DNA of 53,484 nt from Acidobacteriota bacterium (GTDB taxonomy: Bacteria; Acidobacteriota; Aminicenantia; UBA2199), in NCBI GenBank assembly GCA_025456175.1, contig JALOLC010000008.1, positions 1 through 53,484 of the forward strand, given 5' to 3'. Both the position numbers and the translations under genes were made by a program. Below are positions 10,059-35,698 of the stretch, piece by piece (position 1 is the first letter of the stretch; every line of letters starts with the position of its first letter). The notes under the pieces are model-generated. The model was not told where the DNA came from, made no database searches, and saw nothing but the letters and a program-made list of their open reading frames with translations.

Positions 10059-12041
10059 CTAAAGGTCCATGCGGATCGGCAGCGTCACCGAAGCGATCTC
10101 GTCCCAGTGCAGCTGGCGCTGGATGGCGAAGGCCGTCTCATTGTGCAGTATCTTGTGGTAGAACTTCTCGCGGCGAAAGGTCAGCTTGCCGGTGAAGACG
10201 GTGGAGCGGTGGAATTCGGACTTGATGTCCTTGCACAGCTGGGTGGCGGTTTCCACCACGTCGGTGCCCACGGCATGGCGCCAGTCGGAGGCGAAGCCCA
10301 AATGGCGCGCCAGGTCGACGTACTTCTGCAGGGTGGCCTTCGACGCCTCCTCCAGGTTCTTCAGCTCCTCGGCCCCCTTGAACGAGCCCGAATCGACCAC
10401 GGCCACCGAGGCGAAGATGAAGTTCTTGTAGAGGTTGGGGAAGTTGCGGATCACCGAGAGCACGGTGTGCACGCCGAAGCCGTTGAACTCGCTGACCAGC
10501 TGGATGGCGGTCATCTCCTGGGGATTGGGCGTCTCCGCGTTGGCCTTGCGGCTGGTGGGGATGTCCAGCAGCAGGTCGTCCAGCTGGCGCACCGCCTTCT
10601 TCACGTTGGCGTAATGCCGGCGGATCAGGAAACAGATGGCGACCAGCGTGCCGGTGATCAATAACGTCATCCATCCGCCCTCGCTGAATTTCTCGTAGCT
10701 GGTAATGATCAAAATAGTGAAGCAGAGAACGAGGCCGACAAGATGGATGGGCAGATGCCGGCGCCACTGCGTTTCCCGGCGGCGGTTTTGGATGTAGTAT
10801 TTGGACATGCCCAGCTGCGAGATGGAGAAGGTGAGAAACACGTTGATGGCGTACATGGTCACCAGGCTGGAGATCGAGCCGCGGGTATAAAGCAGGAGCA
10901 GGATCGAGGCGCCGCCCATGAGCAGGATGCCGTTGTGCATGGTCAGGCGCTGCGAGAGCGAGGCGAAGCGGTGGGGCAGCCAGGAGTCGATGGCCATGTT
11001 GGCCATGATGCGCGGGCCGTCGATGAAGCCGGCCTGGGCGGCCACGAACAGCAGGGCGCCCTCGGAGAGGATGGTGACCAGCGCCAGGCCATAGCCGAAC
11101 GACCAGTTGCCGTACAGGGCATTGGCCAGGATGGCGTTCAGCGTCTTGCCCTCTCCCGGGGCGACCTTGAGCAGCAGGTAGCAGAAGAAAAGGCCGCTGG
11201 CGGTGAAGGCCAGGGATACGGCCATGTAGAGCATGGTCTTCTTGCCGGTTTGCACCTTGGGCTCGCGCAGGATCTGCATGCCGTTGGCCACGGCCTCGAT
11301 GCCGGTGTAGGTTCCAGCCCCCATGGAATAGGCGCGCAGGAAAAGCGCCAGCATGCCCAGTCCGCCCAGGGTGGTCAGGCCCGAGTTGAAATCGTTGCGG
11401 ATGCCGTGCGCCACCGGCCCGATCTGCGGCAGGTGCGACAGGATGCCGTAGCCGATCATGAAGACATGGGTGACGACGAAGACGATGAAGATCGGCGCCA
11501 GAATGGTCACCGACTCCTTGACCCCGCGCAGGTTGAGCACGATCAGCAGCAGGATGAGGAACAACTCGAAGAATATCTTGTACTCGTGCAATCCCATGGG
11601 CAGGAAGCTGAAAATGGCGTCGCCGCAGGCGGCGATGGAGACGGTGATGGTCAGCATGTAGTCGACCAGCAGGGCGGTGCCCGACACGAGACCGGACTTG
11701 GGTCCCAGGGTGTGGGTGGCCACGATGTAGCCGCCGCCGCCGTGGGGAAAGTGCTCGATGATGCGTGAGTACGAGTACGAAATGATGAAAACGGTCAGCG
11801 AGGTGGCCAGGGCCAGGAAAATGGCCAGGTAGGTGTGCTGGCCCAGGGCGCGGAAGGCCTCCTCGGGTCCGTAGGAGGAGGAGGAGAGGCCGTCGGCGCC
11901 GAGGCCGATCCAGGCCAGCAGCGGCACCAGCGAGAGCTTGTGGAAGATGGAGGGGTCCTTGATGTTGCGCGGGGCGCCGACCACCGTCTGGCGCACCTTT
12001 TCCAGGAGCGTATCGTGTTCGTTTGAACCGTTCTGTGCCAT
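10059..12041 (-). CDS. KimA-like APC-superfamily K+ transporter with cytoplasmic C-terminal domain
   Basis: YSRIIEHFPHGGGGYIVATHTLGPKSGLVSGTALLVDYMLTITVSIAACGDAI and the C-terminal KILHNETAFAIQ...TLPIRM closely recall B. subtilis KimA as I remember it. AAGGA is 6 nt before the second ATG (12041). The first ATG is at 12047. Confidence 0.65.
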   Translation of the reverse strand: MAQNGSNEHDTLLEKVRQTVVGAPRNIKDPSIFHKLSLVPLLAWIGLGADGLSSSSYGPEEAFRALGQHTYLAIFLALATSLTVFIISYSYSRIIEHFPHGGGGYIVATHTLGPKSGLVSGTALLVDYMLTITVSIAACGDAIFSFLPMGLHEYKIFFELFLILLLIVLNLRGVKESVTILAPIFIVFVVTHVFMIGYGILSHLPQIGPVAHGIRNDFNSGLTTLGGLGMLALFLRAYSMGAGTYTGIEAVANGMQILREPKVQTGKKTMLYMAVSLAFTASGLFFCYLLLKVAPGEGKTLNAILANALYGNWSFGYGLALVTILSEGALLFVAAQAGFIDGPRIMANMAIDSWLPHRFASLSQRLTMHNGILLMGGASILLLLYTRGSISSLVTMYAINVFLTFSISQLGMSKYYIQNRRRETQWRRHLPIHLVGLVLCFTILIITSYEKFSEGGWMTLLITGTLVAICFLIRRHYANVKKAVRQLDDLLLDIPTSRKANAETPNPQEMTAIQLVSEFNGFGVHTVLSVIRNFPNLYKNFIFASVAVVDSGSFKGAEELKNLEEASKATLQKYVDLARHLGFASDWRHAVGTDVVETATQLCKDIKSEFHRSTVFTGKLTFRREKFYHKILHNETAFAIQRQLHWDEIASVTLPIRMDL

Positions 12042-12102
12042 AGCCATTCCTTATTGTTGATTGCCAAGGCGGGCAGGGTATCCAGCCTCGAAGATAATAC
12101 TA

Positions 12103-12131
12103 ATTTTACGCTCAACCCCGCGTTCTGTCAA
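12103..12131 (-). promoter_or_regulatory. sigma70-type promoter of the KimA-like gene
   Basis: Minus strand reads TTGACA (12131-12126), a 17-nt spacer, then TAAAAT (12108-12103). The leader is about 55 nt. Confidence 0.6.
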
Positions 12132-12272
12132 ATCACCGGGGCCGCGCGGCGCAGTTGACAGCCCATATTCTTTATGATACTGAATGAGTGGGCAAGGTCG
12201 CTCACGGCTGCTGTCAGGAATCAGAAAGGAGAAGTCGGCGATGATGTGTTGCGGGCGGCAGGAGGCGGGGCC

Positions 12273-14174
12273 ATGGAAAACGAACATCAGAGTACCTTAA
12301 AAAAGAAGATCCAGATCCTGTTCCAGCTCGGGAAATGGCCCGACGTGGTCAAGCTTTGCGAGTCCTACGGCGAGAGCTACGGCAAGGACATGGAGATCGA
12401 CCTGATCCGCTTCAAGTGCCAGCGCCACATGGGCATCCCGGCGGCGGAGTCGAAGCCGGAAACGGAGGCGGGCAAGAGCGCGGCGGCGGAAAAGGCTCCC
12501 CCGCGAGAATCCGCCCGCGCCGCTGGGGATGACGTCGATCCGACCATCCCGCTCATCCCGCCCACGATCTCCGACGAGTTGGCTTCGAGCGGCGGGGAAA
12601 AAGCAGCGTATGATTATTCGCCCGAGCCCGACGAGGTGGATATCGGCGACCCTTTCGCTGACAACGAACTGGCCATCAGCGATCCTTTCGCCGACAGTGA
12701 ACCCGGACTGCGCCTGGCCCCTGAGGGGCCTCCGGTCCACATCTCCGAGAGCGAACCCGCTGCCGCCGAACCCATGGTGGGTCCCTCGTCACTGGAAATG
12801 GAAAGCCCGGACGCCGCCGACAGCCAGCCCGCGGACGGTGACAGCGAGCCCGACTTCGCGAACATGGGATCCTTGACCATCGATGCCGAGCCCGAGCTTT
12901 TACCGGCGGCGGCATTGCCGGAGCGTGCCGCGCCCGCTATGGAAGAAGTTGCGCCCACGAAACCCGATGATCCTTCGCGAATGACCTCCGGCCGCGTCGA
13001 GGTGCTTGCGGAGCGCGTGGAGGAAAAGCGGGCGCCCTCGGCTCCGTTTGTGGAGGAGGAAGCTCCCCGGCCGCGCGCTTCGATGTTCACGCCGGCTCCC
13101 GAGAAGGAGGCGCCGCCAAGAAGGAAACCCTTCACCATCAAGCTGGCGCTGCTGATCGTCCTGCCGCTGCTTTTCGCCATTGCCCTGTGGCTGGCCCTTT
13201 CGGGGAAGCTTAATCTCGGCGGCGATGAACCGCCGCCGGCTCCGGAGCCGGCGGTTGAACGCCCGCTCCCCCGCCGCGTGCGCCCGCCCAAGACGGTTGT
13301 TACGCCTGACGCGGCGGCCCAGGCCGCAGCGCAACAGGCGGAGCAGGAAAAAACTTTCTCTGAAAAGCTCAAACAGGCGGAAGCGCTGAACCAGCAGGGG
13401 GATCTGCTCAACGCCTGGGCAGCGCTCCTGGAGGCCAAGAAGATCAAGGTGACCGAGCCGCTGCAGAAGCTCGAAGAGCAGCTGGCCCTGAAGATGAGCG
13501 AAGCCCGGGCGGCGGCCAAGAAAGTGACCGAGACCGTCAAGAGCGAATATGACAGGGAGATCGAGGCGCTGGCCAAAGCCAGGGAAGCCAACACGATCGC
13601 CGGCTGGCAGGACTTTCTGCGCGCGTACCCTCAGAGCGAGTCGGCGTCCCAGGCCCAGGCGCGGATTGGCGCGCTGGAAAAAAAGGCCCAGGAGGAGGCC
13701 CAGCAGCTGCTGCTGCAGCGAATCCGGCAGGCGCAGAAGGTCAGGATGCGCTCCACGCCGCTGAATCTGAGCCAGGCTGAACTCTCCGCACTACCGGGCC
13801 TCTCCGCCCGACCGCCCACCCAGTTCGAGGCGCATCCGCACGGCGGCGTAACGGTGGTGCTCGACCTTAGCGCCGGGCTGATGTGGTCGCTTTACGACAA
13901 GCCCATGGCCTATGACAAGGCCCGCTGGTGGGCCAACCGGGTTACGGCCGGCTACAGCGGCTGGAGGCTGCCGACCGTCGAGGAAGCACTGGCGCTGCTG
14001 CAGATGGACAAGGGCCGGTACGCCGGCCTGGCCGATTTTTCCGTCTGGACCTGCGACGGGGTCAGCAACCAGCCGCGCAGCGCCTGGGTGCTGCGGCTGC
14101 CCGCCGGGCAGTTCGTCGTCGCTCCCTACAGCCAGATGAGCTATGTCTGGGCCGTGCGCAGCGCTGTCAAATAG
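12273..14174 (+). CDS. single-pass membrane protein with acidic/Pro-rich N-terminal region, coiled-coil segment and C-terminal DUF1566 (Lcl C-terminal)-like domain
   Basis: AGGAGG lies 7 nt before ATG 12273. TM segment LALLIVLPLLFAIALWLAL. C-terminal ...WRLPTVEEALALL...WTCD... resembles DUF1566. Confidence 0.55.
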   Translation: MENEHQSTLKKKIQILFQLGKWPDVVKLCESYGESYGKDMEIDLIRFKCQRHMGIPAAESKPETEAGKSAAAEKAPPRESARAAGDDVDPTIPLIPPTISDELASSGGEKAAYDYSPEPDEVDIGDPFADNELAISDPFADSEPGLRLAPEGPPVHISESEPAAAEPMVGPSSLEMESPDAADSQPADGDSEPDFANMGSLTIDAEPELLPAAALPERAAPAMEEVAPTKPDDPSRMTSGRVEVLAERVEEKRAPSAPFVEEEAPRPRASMFTPAPEKEAPPRRKPFTIKLALLIVLPLLFAIALWLALSGKLNLGGDEPPPAPEPAVERPLPRRVRPPKTVVTPDAAAQAAAQQAEQEKTFSEKLKQAEALNQQGDLLNAWAALLEAKKIKVTEPLQKLEEQLALKMSEARAAAKKVTETVKSEYDREIEALAKAREANTIAGWQDFLRAYPQSESASQAQARIGALEKKAQEEAQQLLLQRIRQAQKVRMRSTPLNLSQAELSALPGLSARPPTQFEAHPHGGVTVVLDLSAGLMWSLYDKPMAYDKARWWANRVTAGYSGWRLPTVEEALALLQMDKGRYAGLADFSVWTCDGVSNQPRSAWVLRLPAGQFVVAPYSQMSYVWAVRSAVK

Positions 14175-27709: not shown

Positions 27710-28930
27710 ATGAAAAAAAGCGCTTTTTATTTCCTGATGGGCATGGCCATCGCCTGGGGATGTGGCGTGACGTTTGGCCAGACCCCGGGGGAGACGGCCA
27801 ACCTGCTGTCGCTGCAGGAGGGGACGCTGCCGGTGGTGGAACCCGAGTGCTATTCTGGCTGGACGATCGAGGCGCTGCTCGACGACAGCGCAACGTCGGG
27901 CTGGGCCTGCACGGAAAACAAAACCAAGAACAACGTCTTCGTATTCGAAATGGTGGCGGCGGCCACGCTCGAGCGCTTCGAGTTCGATACCGCCAGCATC
28001 GACGAGGATGGGGCCGGGGCAAAGGACGTAATGGTCGAAGTCTCCGCCGTGAACAAGGCGTCGGGCTTCCAGTCCGTCCTGCAGGCCAGCCTGGCGGCCA
28101 AGGCCGACCGCCAGTCGTTCAGGGCGGCCAAGCCGGTCAGCGGCCGCTGGGTGCGGCTGACGGTAAAAAACAACCAGGGCAACGCTTCGTGGACCGAACT
28201 GTTCGCCTTCCGCGGCTTCGGCGTCAGGCCCGCCGCCGTGCCGCCGGCGGGAAACGTTTCCGGCACCTACGAATCCACCTACTCCAAGTTTCACCTGCGC
28301 CAGCAGGGAACGGCGCTGCAGGGTTGCTACGAGTCCAACGAGGGCCTGCTCGACGGCACCATCGAGGGGCGGGTGATGAAGCTCACCTGGCGCGAGAGCG
28401 AGGCCAAGGGCCCGGCCGTGATGGTCTTTGCCGCGGACGGCAGAAGTTTCCGCGGCTACTGGTGGCGCGAGGGAGCGGCCGACCAGGCGCCTCACGGCCG
28501 CTGGGACGGCGACAAGCTTGGCGACGCGGTCGGCGGCTGCCCGCACTGGTCGGGCTCGCTGGGCGGCGAGGTAAAAAAGAAGCTGCTCAGCGAGGGGCGG
28601 GCGCGCGTCTACGGCATTCTCTTCGACACCGACTCGGCCGTCATCCGTTCCGAGTCCAGGCCGGTCATCGACGAGGTCCTGGGCGTGCTCAAAAGCGAAC
28701 CGGGCTGGAAAGTGACCATCGAGGGGCACACCGACTCGACCGGCAACGCCGGCCACAACCTCACCCTTTCGCAGCAGCGGGCCGACTCGGTCAAGGCCTT
28801 CCTGGTGGCCGGGGGCATCGACGGCAACCGGCTGAAGACGAAAGGCTTCGGCGCCGGCAAGCCGGTCGCCGACAACGCCAGCGAGCTGGGCCGCGCCCAG
28901 AACCGCCGCGTGGAGCTGGTCAGGGAATAG
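27710..28930 (+). CDS. OmpA-family peptidoglycan-binding protein with N-terminal sugar-binding-like (discoidin-type) domain
   Basis: Signal peptide. C-terminal TIEGHTDSTGNAGHNLTLSQQRADSVKAFL...NRRVELV OmpA_C motif. Confidence 0.75.
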   Translation: MKKSAFYFLMGMAIAWGCGVTFGQTPGETANLLSLQEGTLPVVEPECYSGWTIEALLDDSATSGWACTENKTKNNVFVFEMVAAATLERFEFDTASIDEDGAGAKDVMVEVSAVNKASGFQSVLQASLAAKADRQSFRAAKPVSGRWVRLTVKNNQGNASWTELFAFRGFGVRPAAVPPAGNVSGTYESTYSKFHLRQQGTALQGCYESNEGLLDGTIEGRVMKLTWRESEAKGPAVMVFAADGRSFRGYWWREGAADQAPHGRWDGDKLGDAVGGCPHWSGSLGGEVKKKLLSEGRARVYGILFDTDSAVIRSESRPVIDEVLGVLKSEPGWKVTIEGHTDSTGNAGHNLTLSQQRADSVKAFLVAGGIDGNRLKTKGFGAGKPVADNASELGRAQNRRVELVRE

Positions 28931-28942
28931 AAAGGAAAGGAC

Positions 28943-29043
28943 TCGGTATACGGTGGACGGTTGACGGCGGGCGGCAGCAGCGATCCTCGAACTAGAGCGG
29001 TGAATGGCAATGACCGTAAACCGTGTACCGTAAACCGTAGGCC
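28943..29043. repeat. ACGGTNN-heptamer hairpin element
   Basis: TCGGTAT ACGGTGG ACGGTTG ACGGCGG GCGGCAG faces GACCGTA AACCGTG TACCGTA AACCGTA. 4-5-bp helices are separated by 2x2 mismatches. Confidence 0.65.
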
Positions 29044-29119
29044 AAGCTTTGATGAATCGCGGTATTGATTTTCGGCGGCGTTTGTCCTACCATGGCTCTT
29101 TTCAAGACGGAGGAAGGCC

Positions 29120-29770
29120 TTGAACGTAATCGACCTGACCCGGTTCATCAGCAGGACCATGCCGGTGTTTCCGGGCACCGAGCCGCCGCGCCTGGAAGAG
29201 TCATTCACCATCGAGCGCAACGGCTTTGCCGAGAAAACGCTCCACCTCGTCTCGCATACCGGCACCCACATCGACGCCCCCGGCCATATCCTTCCCGGAG
29301 CCATTCGCCTCGACGGTTTTCCCGCCGGCCGCTTCCTGGGGCCGGGCGTCGTTCTGGACGCCTCGGCCGTACGCGGGCGACATGTTGAAATCGGCGATAT
29401 CGCGGCGGATGAACCACGGCTGCGCCGGGCCGACTTCGCCTTGTTGCACACGGGGTGGGCCAGGCACTGGGGCGCGGCCGAATACTTCGGTTCCTATCCG
29501 GTCCTTGCGCCTGCCGCCGCGCAGTGGCTGGCCGCCATGGAGCTCAAGGGTTTCGGCGTGGACGCCATCTCGGCCGACGAGGTCGAATCGTCCGCCCTGC
29601 CCGTCCACCGGGCGCTGTTCGCCAGGAACATGCTGATCATCGAGAATCTGGCCGACCTGGGGCCATTGCTCGGCAAGGAATTCATCTTCTCCTGCCTGCC
29701 GTTGAAGATCGCCGATGCCGACGGCTCGCCAATAAGGGCAGTGGCTATGCTGGACTTGCTGACGAAGTGA
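29120..29770 (+). CDS. cyclase family protein (kynurenine formamidase-like)
   Basis: HTGTHIDAPGH motif. TTG start lies 6 nt after GGAGG. Confidence 0.75.
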   Translation: MNVIDLTRFISRTMPVFPGTEPPRLEESFTIERNGFAEKTLHLVSHTGTHIDAPGHILPGAIRLDGFPAGRFLGPGVVLDASAVRGRHVEIGDIAADEPRLRRADFALLHTGWARHWGAAEYFGSYPVLAPAAAQWLAAMELKGFGVDAISADEVESSALPVHRALFARNMLIIENLADLGPLLGKEFIFSCLPLKIADADGSPIRAVAMLDLLTK

Positions 29771-29776
29771 CCCGTA

Positions 29777-29872
29777 CTCGGTGTAGGGTGCAAGGTGCAA
29801 GGTGAAGATGCTTATTGGATTTCTTGTCCTGTCTTTCCACCTGGCACCTTCTACCTTACACCCTGTGCCGAG
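29777..29872. repeat. GGTGCAA-heptamer hairpin element
   Basis: GGTGTAG GGTGCAA GGTGCAA GGTGAAG faces GCACCTT CTACCTT ACACCCT. The stem covers 28 positions: 22 WC, 4 G.U, 2 mismatches. Confidence 0.75.
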
Positions 29873-29880
29873 AACGCTGT

Positions 29881-30705
29881 TTACTTCCTGACCCTGCCTC
29901 TGACGTTGCGGATATCGACCTCGCCGCTGCCGGCATCCTCGATGGTGACGTCCTTTTCCACGCCGTCGATTACGATGTTGCCTGAGCCGTCGTCGATCCG
30001 CACCGAGCCGCGGACTCCGCGCAGATCGATCTCGCCGGAGCCGTCGTCAACGACGACGTCGCCGCCGGCGTTCTTCAGCTCGATGTCGCCCGAGCCGTCC
30101 TCGATCTCGACATGGCCGGCAATGTCAGACAGATCCAGGCCGCCGGAACCGTCTTCGATCTCCACCGCGCCCTTGACGTTGGCCAGCCGCAGGTCGCCGG
30201 AGCCGTCCACGATTTTCACCGGACCCGCGATCTCATCCAGCATCGCGTCTCCCGATCCGTCATTCAGGTCCAGGCTCCCGCCCAGGGAATTGATCGTGAC
30301 ATTCCCCGAGCCGTCCTCCACGCTGAGGTTCATGCTGCGCGGCAGGCTGACATCGAGGTCGATGCGGGCTTCCCGGCCGCCGAAAAGCTTGTCCAGGAAG
30401 AATTTCTCATCGATCTTGGCCAGCAGCACGGCTTCGGAGCCGGTCTTTTCGAGCTTCAGTATGACGTTCTCCTTTCTGAATTCCGCAAGCTCGCCCATGC
30501 CGATGCCCTTCACGCGAAGCATGGCAGTGACCTCGATGCGCTGCAGCCCTTCCTTCCCCTGGACTTTCAGGTAGCCGGCCCCGCAATCGATGCGCATGGC
30601 CCTGCAGCCCGACGCATCCAGCGTCAGCGTCTCCCGGCTCTCCGCCGCCTGGACCGTTGCCAGTAAAAACAGGAATATCAGGCAAAATAAAGTCGTTTTC
30701 TTCAT
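29881..30705 (-). CDS. DUF4097-like beta-solenoid repeat protein (putative adhesin), secreted
   Basis: Signal peptide MKKTTLFCLIFLFLLATVQA. About 8 repeats of the form ...V.I.DGSGDI.L... GAGGAGG RBS lies before ATG 30705. Confidence 0.7.
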   Translation of the reverse strand: MKKTTLFCLIFLFLLATVQAAESRETLTLDASGCRAMRIDCGAGYLKVQGKEGLQRIEVTAMLRVKGIGMGELAEFRKENVILKLEKTGSEAVLLAKIDEKFFLDKLFGGREARIDLDVSLPRSMNLSVEDGSGNVTINSLGGSLDLNDGSGDAMLDEIAGPVKIVDGSGDLRLANVKGAVEIEDGSGGLDLSDIAGHVEIEDGSGDIELKNAGGDVVVDDGSGEIDLRGVRGSVRIDDGSGNIVIDGVEKDVTIEDAGSGEVDIRNVRGRVRK

Positions 30706-30812
30706 GGCAGCCTCCTCAATAGTAAACAAACGCATTGGCAAGGCAAAAAGTTCGCCGCCTGCCGCCTATCTTGAACCGGGAACCGTGTTCAGGAGATGCC
30801 CCTGGCAAATCC

Positions 30813-35323: not shown

Positions 35324-35452
35324 GGGGAGTTCTTTGACAGGGATGACTGAGTCATGCAGAACGGTTGAGAGCCCGGCTCGATGAACCCGTGCCAACCTTC
35401 CCGGCGCCCCGCCGGGAAAGGTGGAAACGCCTTTCACCAGGGAGGTGAAGCC
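35324..35452 (+). promoter_or_regulatory. structured 5' leader, unclassified
   Basis: 13-nt palindrome ATGACTGAGTCAT (35343-35355). 9-bp GC hairpin at 35398-35418. 7-bp bulged hairpin at 35420-35438, abutting the SD GGGAGG. Confidence 0.4.
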
Positions 35453-35698
35453 ATGACGGAAGTTACCTTTTTTGAAGATTTTCATTGCTTTGAATATCAC
35501 ACGCCGCAAGGTGCCGCGCAGCGCTTCCGCTATTACCTCTATTCCCCGGTATACGAGCGCATCCCGTTTTTCATCACGATATTAACGCAGGGGGAGTTCG
35601 CTCAGGAAAAAGTGACCTACTCCAGCGATTTTATCCCTTGTAGACTGGCTCGCCACTTGCAGGGCTTGAAGCGAACTGAAGTGACAAGTGAGGAGTGA
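35453..35698 (+). CDS. small hypothetical protein (81 aa), atypical composition
   Basis: GGGAGGTGA RBS lies 4 nt before the ATG. AT-rich third positions, unlike the neighbours. No homology recognised. Confidence 0.4.
   Translation: MTEVTFFEDFHCFEYHTPQGAAQRFRYYLYSPVYERIPFFITILTQGEFAQEKVTYSSDFIPCRLARHLQGLKRTEVTSEE

Follow-up and report, generated by a model that had tools for sequence, protein, structure and literature searches.

The window considered here is the whole of a 53,484-nucleotide stretch of DNA (contig JALOLC010000008.1 of assembly GCA_025456175.1). Its host is a metagenome-assembled genome of 2.19 Mb and 63.6% GC, whose relatives are labelled Candidatus Aminicenantes. In this window, a gene for a cyclase-family protein and a gene for a DUF4097 (“toastrack”) protein run towards each other, and the space between their stop codons is taken up almost entirely by one long hairpin. 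The parts of this junction are as follows.

29120 to 29770, + strand: cyclase-family gene (PF04199, Pfam E=3.7e-31; coordinates as in the ORF list), with its TGA stop 6 nt before the hairpin
29777 to 29804, + strand: 5' arm of the hairpin, read as a CTCGG clamp followed by TGTAGGG, TGCAAGG, TGCAAGG and TG; 13 G, 4 C; matches TCGGYRTANGGNNNRNGGNNNANGG
29805 to 29844, + strand: central spacer, a predicted extension of the stem, with a 4-bp apical stem formed by 29817-29820 and 29826-29829
29845 to 29872, + strand: 3' arm, with heptads GCACCTT, CTACCTT and ACACCCT and then a CCGAG clamp; 12 C, 4 G
29881 to 30741, - strand: DUF4097 gene (PF13349, Pfam E=3.6e-08; coordinates as in the ORF list), with its TAA stop 8 nt beyond the hairpin

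A sequence-only reading had described this element as a hairpin of heptad repeats, paired at 26 of 28 positions, that fills the gap between the genes and is followed by no U-tract. This description holds. Segments 29777-29804 and 29845-29872 pair through 22 Watson-Crick and four G.U pairs, with two mismatches among the 28 positions. The gap from stop to stop (TGA 29768-29770, TAA 29883-29881) is 110 nt, of which the element occupies 96 nt. The 7-nt period is recovered by TRF, which reports an array of GGTGCAA at 29787-29804 (2.6 copies, 100% matches). The U-tract is indeed missing from both strands; the sequence directly 3' of the hairpin is AACGCTGTTTAC on the + strand and TACGGGTCACTT on the - strand, and a terminator scan gave no hairpin-plus-T-run site here. 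The loop of about 40 nt needs a more careful statement. Forty nucleotides do lie between the arms, but most of them are base-paired in the predicted fold, where GGUGAAGAUG pairs with UGUCUUUCCACC over about 10 pairs and the 4-bp apical stem leaves a tip of only 5 nt. The stem would therefore be built from the 28-nt arms and about 14 further pairs, interrupted by internal loops, within 96 nt overall.

When folded as RNA, the + strand reaches -50.1 kcal/mol (z -5.35) and the - strand -47.5 kcal/mol (z -5.49); for each strand, 0 of 200 dinucleotide shuffles folded as well. An identical stretch of 169 nt is found in two further independent assemblies (L132 and L133), which means that the hairpin is not an artefact of assembly. 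The 96-base hairpin between the converging genes is, in short, real.

With the whole window searched against Rfam at the gathering score, nothing matched the hairpin, and in E-value mode it drew only sub-threshold matches to microRNA precursors, that is, to generic long hairpins. The sole match in the window at the gathering score is a SAM riboswitch elsewhere (RF00162, 57.7 bits, 35349-35459, + strand). The element is not unified with others by a rule that it supply stop codons in all three frames of both strands. It does so on the + strand; on the - strand, frame 2 stays open, and the rule fails.

The repeat family and its place in the genome

The hairpin had been thought to use yet another unit sequence, different from those of other hairpins in the window. 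This was not borne out. The element is a variant of the CTCGG/ACGG-type family to which the copies at 28943 and 24635 belong. The consensus of this family is 5'-CTCGG-(YRNA[C/A/G]GG)3-5 ... (CC[G/T/C]TNYR)3-5-CCGAG-3', so that 7-nt units, repeated a few times in tandem, make up each arm. The ACGGT-type copies of the window fall within it as CTCGG-(YRNANGG)n ... CCGAG, having the outer clamp and the heptad frame in common. At the junction, TCGGTGTAGGGTGCAAGGTGCAAGG stands at 29778 and its partner is ...ACACCCTGTGCCGAG; the 5' arm fits TCGGYRTANGGNNNRNGGNNNANGG and the partner ends in CCGA.

The pattern TCGGYRTANGGNNNRNGGNNNANGG was used to search for the family, with the reversed pattern as control (0-3 hits per genome). 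It hit this genome 13 times and was present in each of the 27 other genomes of the genus, at 2-70 hits apiece. Among the other genera of the same family, 1 genome in 44 carried it; over the class outside the genus, 3 in 173 did. There is good support for placing the element, as one copy, in a dispersed and genus-restricted family of extragenic palindromes.

Seven is a favored period in this genome, where 88 tandem arrays of period 7 compare with 20 of period 5 and 5 of period 8. Period-7 arrays that were called loosely number 144; of these, 88 have a reverse-complement partner no more than 200 nt away and 56 are unpaired. The 88 partnered arrays merge into 57 paired elements. The spacers of such elements are another matter. 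The spacer at 29805-29844 has no second copy in the genome, and among about 50 elements only one spacer-to-spacer match was found.

Within the heptads of the family, the GG and A positions are almost always paired (the two G positions by Watson-Crick pairs in 51/56 and 48/56), while positions 2-3 are mismatched in about 40% of cases and paired in about 60%. The GG/CC positions never flip strand. Because positions 2-3 are so often mismatched and the GG/CC positions never flip, what is conserved must be sequence and polarity, not pairing alone. The variable fifth position and its partner form C-G in 22 cases, A-T in 12 and G-T in 7, with 10 unmatched. Over the genome as a whole, the purine-rich arm comes first in 51 of the 56 paired heptad elements (p=1e-10); since the elements are palindromes, this order holds on both strands. 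In the present family the placement of G on the 5' arm is invariant, which speaks for some constraint, or some process of generation, besides pairing. Summed over the whole genome, the left arms of paired heptad elements contain 471 G, 142 C, 663 A and 302 T. With units of the GTGAAAA type, the purine-first order gives both transcripts U4 runs in their 3' arms.

These palindromes favor the 3' ends of genes. Using a crude gene call of our own (1,804 genes, covering 89% of the genome), 45 intergenic paired heptad elements could be classified, with 21 in convergent gaps, 19 in tandem gaps and 5 in divergent gaps. Convergent gaps make up only 18.5% of all gaps, against the 21/45 of elements found there (p=1.5e-5). 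In the tandem gaps, 17 of 19 elements lie nearer to the upstream stop (p=7e-4). A parallel view comes from folding gaps of 50-220 nt throughout the genome with repeats ignored. Here, structure at z<=-3 was present in 27 of the 100 convergent gaps, in 44 of the 295 tandem ones and in 11 of the 148 divergent ones. The proposal that the element resembles a terminator without a U-tract thus fares well in part, as convergent enrichment and placement near the upstream stop support a role at 3' ends; what did not survive is its assignment to a separate unit family.

Most bacteria outside the model phyla lack recognizable terminators at most of their genes. Here, lineage-specific long hairpins sit exactly between the stop codons. 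In this genome, hairpin-plus-U sites occur in 6.6% of gene 3' regions, as against 2.8% of mid-gene positions, which indicates that canonical terminators are rare. The genome does encode rho.

The same junction in relatives

The convergent pair of cyclase and DUF4097 genes is kept in many species of the genus. In most lineages, over a range of 55-100% protein identity, some heptad hairpin occupies the junction, and the unit families differ.

CTCGG-type hairpin: this genome, G004, G007, G018, G024, L060
CGTGACG/GTGACGA-type hairpin: G006, L131, L137/L138
GTTAAAG-type hairpin: G009
Composite hairpin, with a GTTCGAW 5' arm and a CGTCACG 3' arm: G014
No hairpin, 17-nt gap: L056 (71% protein identity)

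The last of these shows that the element is dispensable, at least in L056, where the convergent pair makes do with a gap of 17 nt and no hairpin. The CTCGG type is also found 3' of the cyclase gene despite a different neighboring gene (G023, G043), and its 5' arm alone follows the cyclase gene in G013, G020 and G042. A search of contigs with the DUF4097 protein returned only distant matches in Acidobacteriota.

Compound elements are a further variation. Three of them (L028, L033 and L037, downstream of the cyclase gene in G001, G013 and G002) carry a heptad hairpin of AAATTCC/GGAATTT units, with conserved flanks, nested in the loop of a hairpin of the CTCGG type; the G001 element lacks the outer 5' arm. 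This arrangement suggests that new arrays settle preferentially in loops.

Nine orthologous CTCGG-type hairpins from the junction can be aligned. In register, 79.9% of their cells are paired; sliding the partner by 1-3 columns brings this to 27-45%. Covariation among the nine is not significant. Shuffling the columns gives 78.0% paired cells and reaches the observed 79.9% in 50 of 500 trials, and the covariation score of 0.200, against 0.172 when shuffled, is reached in 34 of 500. Changes on both sides of the stem all come from one lineage, comprising this genome and L134. A switch at five positions that looked “compensated” was rejected as evidence for this reason, since replacement by a different subtype of the family would explain it equally well.

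Close relatives of this locus are found in metagenomes, and these allow turnover to be followed among strains. The haplotypes come from samples JGI 3300037461 and 3300027885, ENA ERZ27247864, and runs DRR846316 and SRR27069943/4. Three of them (L134-L136, from three separate runs) are about 92% identical to the window, with a divergence of 19.1% at four-fold sites. Their hairpin is the same one with an extra heptad, CTCAAGG, in the 5' arm only. This is direct evidence for change at the level of the single heptad. Comparison of this genome with L134 gives 5 differences over 67 arm sites and 44 over 230 four-fold sites (Fisher one-sided p=0.014). In the spacer, 7 of 29 sites differ, approximately the neutral rate (19% at four-fold sites). 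These counts show modest constraint on the arms and none on the spacer.

Other relatives differ in a more radical way. The sequences L051/L137 and L138 are about 99% identical to the window elsewhere, yet carry at the junction an unrelated heptad hairpin of the GTGACGA type. L137 and L138 come from two independent assemblies, with a four-fold divergence of 3.9% and a sliding identity that is mostly 0.95-1.00 over three genes. What differs is a discrete block.

29731 to 29899, no strand: haplotype block holding the last ~12 cyclase codons, the hairpin and the last DUF4097 codons, delimited by alignment and sliding identity

In L051/L137 and L138, this block of about 170 bp is replaced as a unit by the GTGACGA-type allele. 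Across lineages, moreover, the gene tails co-vary with the type of hairpin. The locus behaves as a replaceable cassette, and the simplest reading is that this cassette of about 170 bp has been exchanged between diverged lineages by homologous recombination. The GTGACGA-type allele itself is not uniform, as its arms differ considerably between L138 and L131.

This turnover has practical consequences. Intergenic cassettes of this kind turn over at a far higher rate than the neighboring genes, a point to bear in mind when strains are typed and when the micro-diversity of metagenome-assembled genomes is interpreted. Of particular interest is that nature offers a series of alleles at a single convergent junction: an identical hairpin in three assemblies, a form with one extra heptad, an unrelated family swapped into strains that are ~99% identical, and an empty junction. 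Such a series is a ready-made experiment on a hairpin that lacks U residues after it.

A second element of the family lies just upstream, and its distribution is also patchy.

28943 to 29043, + strand: sibling copy of the ACGGT subtype, after an OmpA-like gene; present only in this genome, L132 and L133

About 75 nt after this hairpin are likewise confined to this genome, L132 and L133. L131, L134-L135 and L137-L138 lack the 28943 hairpin, and in them only 12 nt separate the OmpA-like gene from the cyclase gene, a spacing that fits a transcription-unit boundary at the sibling hairpin. A sigma-70 scan between that hairpin and the cyclase gene gave no promoter. Taken as a whole, the block found only in this genome, L132 and L133 covers about 210 nt (28922-29131), in which the hairpin comes first and after it the GGAGG ribosome-binding site and TTG start of the cyclase gene. 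Its counterpart in L131, L134-L135 and L137-L138 has an ATG start for the cyclase gene, and there are synonymous differences in the adjoining codons. This looks like an operon that has been split, or joined, by the exchange of a cassette.

The DUF4097 gene has variable stretches of its own. Around 30023-30083 and 30189-30209 it aligns very poorly with relatives that are otherwise 88-92% identical (identity 0.10 with L134, 0.25 with L131), and the lengths of its products differ (256-292 aa versus 286 aa). Parts of the protein that vary, or are prone to indels, may be encoded there.

Comparison with known repeats

Extragenic palindromes are, of course, familiar from the Proteobacteria, as REP, BIME and REPIN elements. 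A REP arm is an imperfect palindrome with a 5' GTAG, and is mobilized by a RAYT transposase. REPs stabilize upstream mRNA, and both REP and MITE elements prefer the 3' ends of genes. The family described here is like these in being a multi-copy, lineage-specific set of extragenic palindromes of about 100 nt, with conserved arms and a variable spacer, concentrated after stops and between convergent genes. It is unlike REP in that its arms are purine-rich tandem heptads and in that no association with a RAYT was found, and so departs from REP in two defining features. The arms cannot pair with themselves, because they are made of direct heptads and are strongly purine- or pyrimidine-rich (13 G and 4 C in one, 4 G and 12 C in the other).

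Distribution gave no support to a REP/RAYT mechanism. Genes for Y1_Tnp occur in 16 of the 18 genera that make up the family, and none was found in G004, which has 70 copies of the palindrome. In this genome, the sole Y1_Tnp gene is flanked by inverted repeats of 33 nt that are unrelated to the heptads. That gene (PF01797, 285 aa; G000 contig C61:4660-6390) has the repeats (ATTGGTGTCAGGTCTTACATTATTACTTTTCAT) on both sides, with copies in L049 at 984-1016, 1880-1912 and 2676-2708; the third is 800 nt further on, inside a direct repeat of 152 nt. The unit looks like an IS200/RAYT-like element that has repeats of its own, unrelated to the heptad hairpins. A conserved interior of the MITE kind was also rejected, given that the spacer is single-copy in the genome. 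As to a target-site duplication, filled alleles differ from empty or alternative ones across tracts that include flanking codons, and for that reason the exact limits of an insertion cannot be made out.

Among published descriptions, the nearest is that of Rehm et al. (2015; PMC4692102), on paired inverted heptamer arrays in Xanthomonas. These authors described paired inverted heptameric repeats with the unit GGGAATC in Xanthomonas and GGGGAYT in Nostoc. They counted 70-75 cases where arrays on opposite strands converge as a pair capable of forming a stem-loop, with 89-93% being intergenic. Those repeats lie closer to the upstream ORF and are poorly conserved between related species (PMC4692102). 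The likeness to the present element is evident, in that both have tandem 7-nt units in two opposed arrays, in intergenic positions near the upstream ORF. The differences lie in the unit, in runs of GG rather than GGG (one GGG occurs in the arm), and in the CTCGG/CCGAG clamp. GGG runs, which are needed for a stable G-quadruplex, are a feature of the units of Rehm et al. (2015). The hosts differ too, being Aminicenantes here and Proteobacteria or Cyanobacteria there, and set against those repeats, the Aminicenantes hairpin has its wholesale swapping of alleles documented.

Two other sets of repeats deserve comparison. In Geobacter metallireducens, Aklujkar et al. (2009; PMC2700814) described paired tandem repeats in classes 1-3, as “global regulator binding sites,” with units GTTGCTYN, TCTCCGTS and MTYCTGA; their reading as IHF/HU sites is a guess (PMC2700814). 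These are similarly multi-copy, with four or five tandem units of 7-9 nt paired on opposite strands at a variable distance, and are specific to one species. Their consensus sequences are different, however, and no bias to 3' ends was reported for them. The other set comprises direct repeats of the heptamer TAACTGA in Beggiatoaceae, Cyanobacteria and Bacteroidetes (MacGregor, 2015; PMC4679880), for which an RNA-binding protein that reads heptads (Csp, S1 or Csr) was proposed (PMC4679880). They, too, are abundant intergenic heptamer arrays that supply stop codons. They differ in being direct rather than inverted, with one inverted case reported, and in lying mostly just upstream of start codons. 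None of these three groups of repeats (Rehm, Aklujkar, MacGregor) has an established function. The Aminicenantes hairpin is, then, of a known but unexplained kind.

Transcript ends and the rival explanations

Presented with a long hairpin directly after two opposed stops, one naturally asks how it might serve the transcripts that cross it. We infer, with a probability of roughly 45%, that the element acts with Rho as a two-way hairpin at RNA 3' ends and is something other than a canonical terminator. The element probably marks the ends of both transcripts, if only as a putative assignment. Were each of the converging genes transcribed across the palindrome, its mRNA would end in a long hairpin worth -48 to -50 kcal/mol, predicted to begin 6-8 nt past its own stop codon. 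Canonical intrinsic termination is unlikely because there is no U-tract; more likely, the hairpin would pause or block RNA polymerase with the help of a factor. Alternatively, Rho might terminate transcription in the untranslated antisense region just beyond, with the hairpin being a barrier that would halt 3'-to-5' exonucleases. By either route, both mRNAs would acquire a stable 3' end, and there would be less read-through into the opposing gene.

The second route resembles something known. Dar and Sorek (2018; PMC6061677) mapped, in E. coli, protective 3' stem-loops of Rho-dependent transcripts. Like those, the present hairpin is stable, stands at a gene end in a genome that encodes Rho, is not followed by U, and has C-rich sequence after it, the last on one strand. 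The stem-loops of Dar and Sorek (2018) are, in contrast, short and unique to their genes, with mapped 3' ends, whereas the present hairpin belongs to a repeat family built from heptads. In the 100 nt that follow the hairpin, the + strand is C-rich (C/G 1.52), which fits the Rho picture; the - strand has a C/G of 1.04, is not C-rich, and does not.

A function strictly at the level of RNA also makes a prediction about strands. G.U pairs in one strand become A.C mismatches in the other, and this asymmetry was examined in 19 tandem gaps. The sense strand folded better in 10 and the antisense strand in 9, which gives no sign of selection on the mRNA strand. This absence of strand bias, together with covariation that is not significant, the empty junction in L056 and the invariant polarity, argues against a strict RNA-level function.

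The main rival to the two-way 3'-end hairpin holds that the element is a neutral or selfish palindromic repeat. It would arise by slippage and inverted duplication, or by some mobilizing activity together with recombination, and be tolerated at 3' ends, with the RNA hairpin as a by-product. We hold this account to be doubtful, if a serious contender, for it accommodates much: a multi-copy family restricted to one genus, with a copy number that runs from 2 to 70 per genome; the presence, absence and type of allele, which vary among near-identical strains; an extra heptad in one arm alone; the 56 unpaired period-7 arrays (called half of all); the compound and nested arrays of relatives; the empty L056 junction; and the lack of significant covariation and of strand bias. 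REP and MITE elements, as is generally known, favor 3' ends likewise. The account sits less well with arms that change about 2.5 times more slowly than four-fold sites beside a neutral spacer, or with a heptad hairpin that holds the junction in most lineages down to 55% protein identity (range 55-100%). Neither the distribution of Y1_Tnp nor the flanking repeats gave a link to a transposase, and the tracts that differ, including as they do flanking codons, leave no clean insertion footprint. Further, spacers that share no homology imply that the copies are not recent duplicates of one element. If the repeat is neutral after all, it makes a clean example of slippage-prone palindromes colonizing gene ends.

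The remaining explanations attend to the heptads themselves. One is that A[C/A]GGY boxes, repeated every 7 bp in two inverted blocks, are bound as double-stranded DNA by a multimeric nucleoid-associated or regulatory protein. This would explain why GG and A are near invariant and never flip while positions 2-3 vary freely and are often mismatched; it fits the absence of an RNA strand bias, is in keeping with the 5 of 45 copies that lie in divergent promoter regions, and has a precedent in the guess made for Geobacter metallireducens (PMC2700814). We nonetheless think it improbable. The GTGACGA, GTTAAAG and GTGAAAA units that fill the same junction or niche are unrelated, and a single sequence-specific protein could not read them all. 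The copies are strongly biased to 3' ends and not to promoters, and the arms match in subtype (the C-G, A-T and G-T pairs counted above, against 10 unmatched), as pairing or a common origin predicts; independent boxes need no such match. A different possibility is that the arms are read as single strands, the G-rich arm as a two-tetrad G-quadruplex, or the pyrimidine-rich arm by an OB-fold protein such as a cold-shock protein (Csp), each monomer of which would take one heptad and so tune whether the hairpin forms. The 5' arm does contain four GG runs separated by 5-nt spacers, nearly every element begins with its purine-rich arm (the 51/56 given above), the GGGAATC repeats of Xanthomonas form G4 (PMC4692102), and binding of one Csp per heptamer is cited in PMC4679880. 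Against this, the runs are GG rather than GGG and would compete with a hairpin of about -50 kcal/mol, and other heptad families of the same niche have no G runs; the idea is quite improbable. That the element is simply a canonical Rho-independent terminator in both directions is hardly credible. A stable hairpin directly 3' of both stops is what such a terminator needs, but neither strand has a U-tract, the terminator scan was empty here, and a stem of at least 28 bp with internal loops is far from the short GC-rich stem (about 5-14 bp, with a loop of 3-8 nt) of the canonical form.

The two-way 3'-end hairpin can also be placed within a broader proposal, which is speculative and, in our view, unlikely. 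This is that heptad palindromes constitute a distinct and widespread class of bacterial gene boundary, whose unrelated unit families are functionally interchangeable and are swapped between strains by recombination, and whose period and polarity reflect a factor that reads heptads. The candidate factor might be an OB-fold/Csp-like protein whose monomers each bind a single unit, or it might be RNA polymerase acting with NusA/NusG, and it would set the efficiency with which transcription ends in the two directions.

One heptad hairpin also lies in the neighborhood of rho. On contig C145, a hairpin of the GTGAAAA type (13158-13257) lies about 900 nt downstream of a match to the Rho RNA-binding domain (12028-12252), which places it near the expected end of the rho gene.
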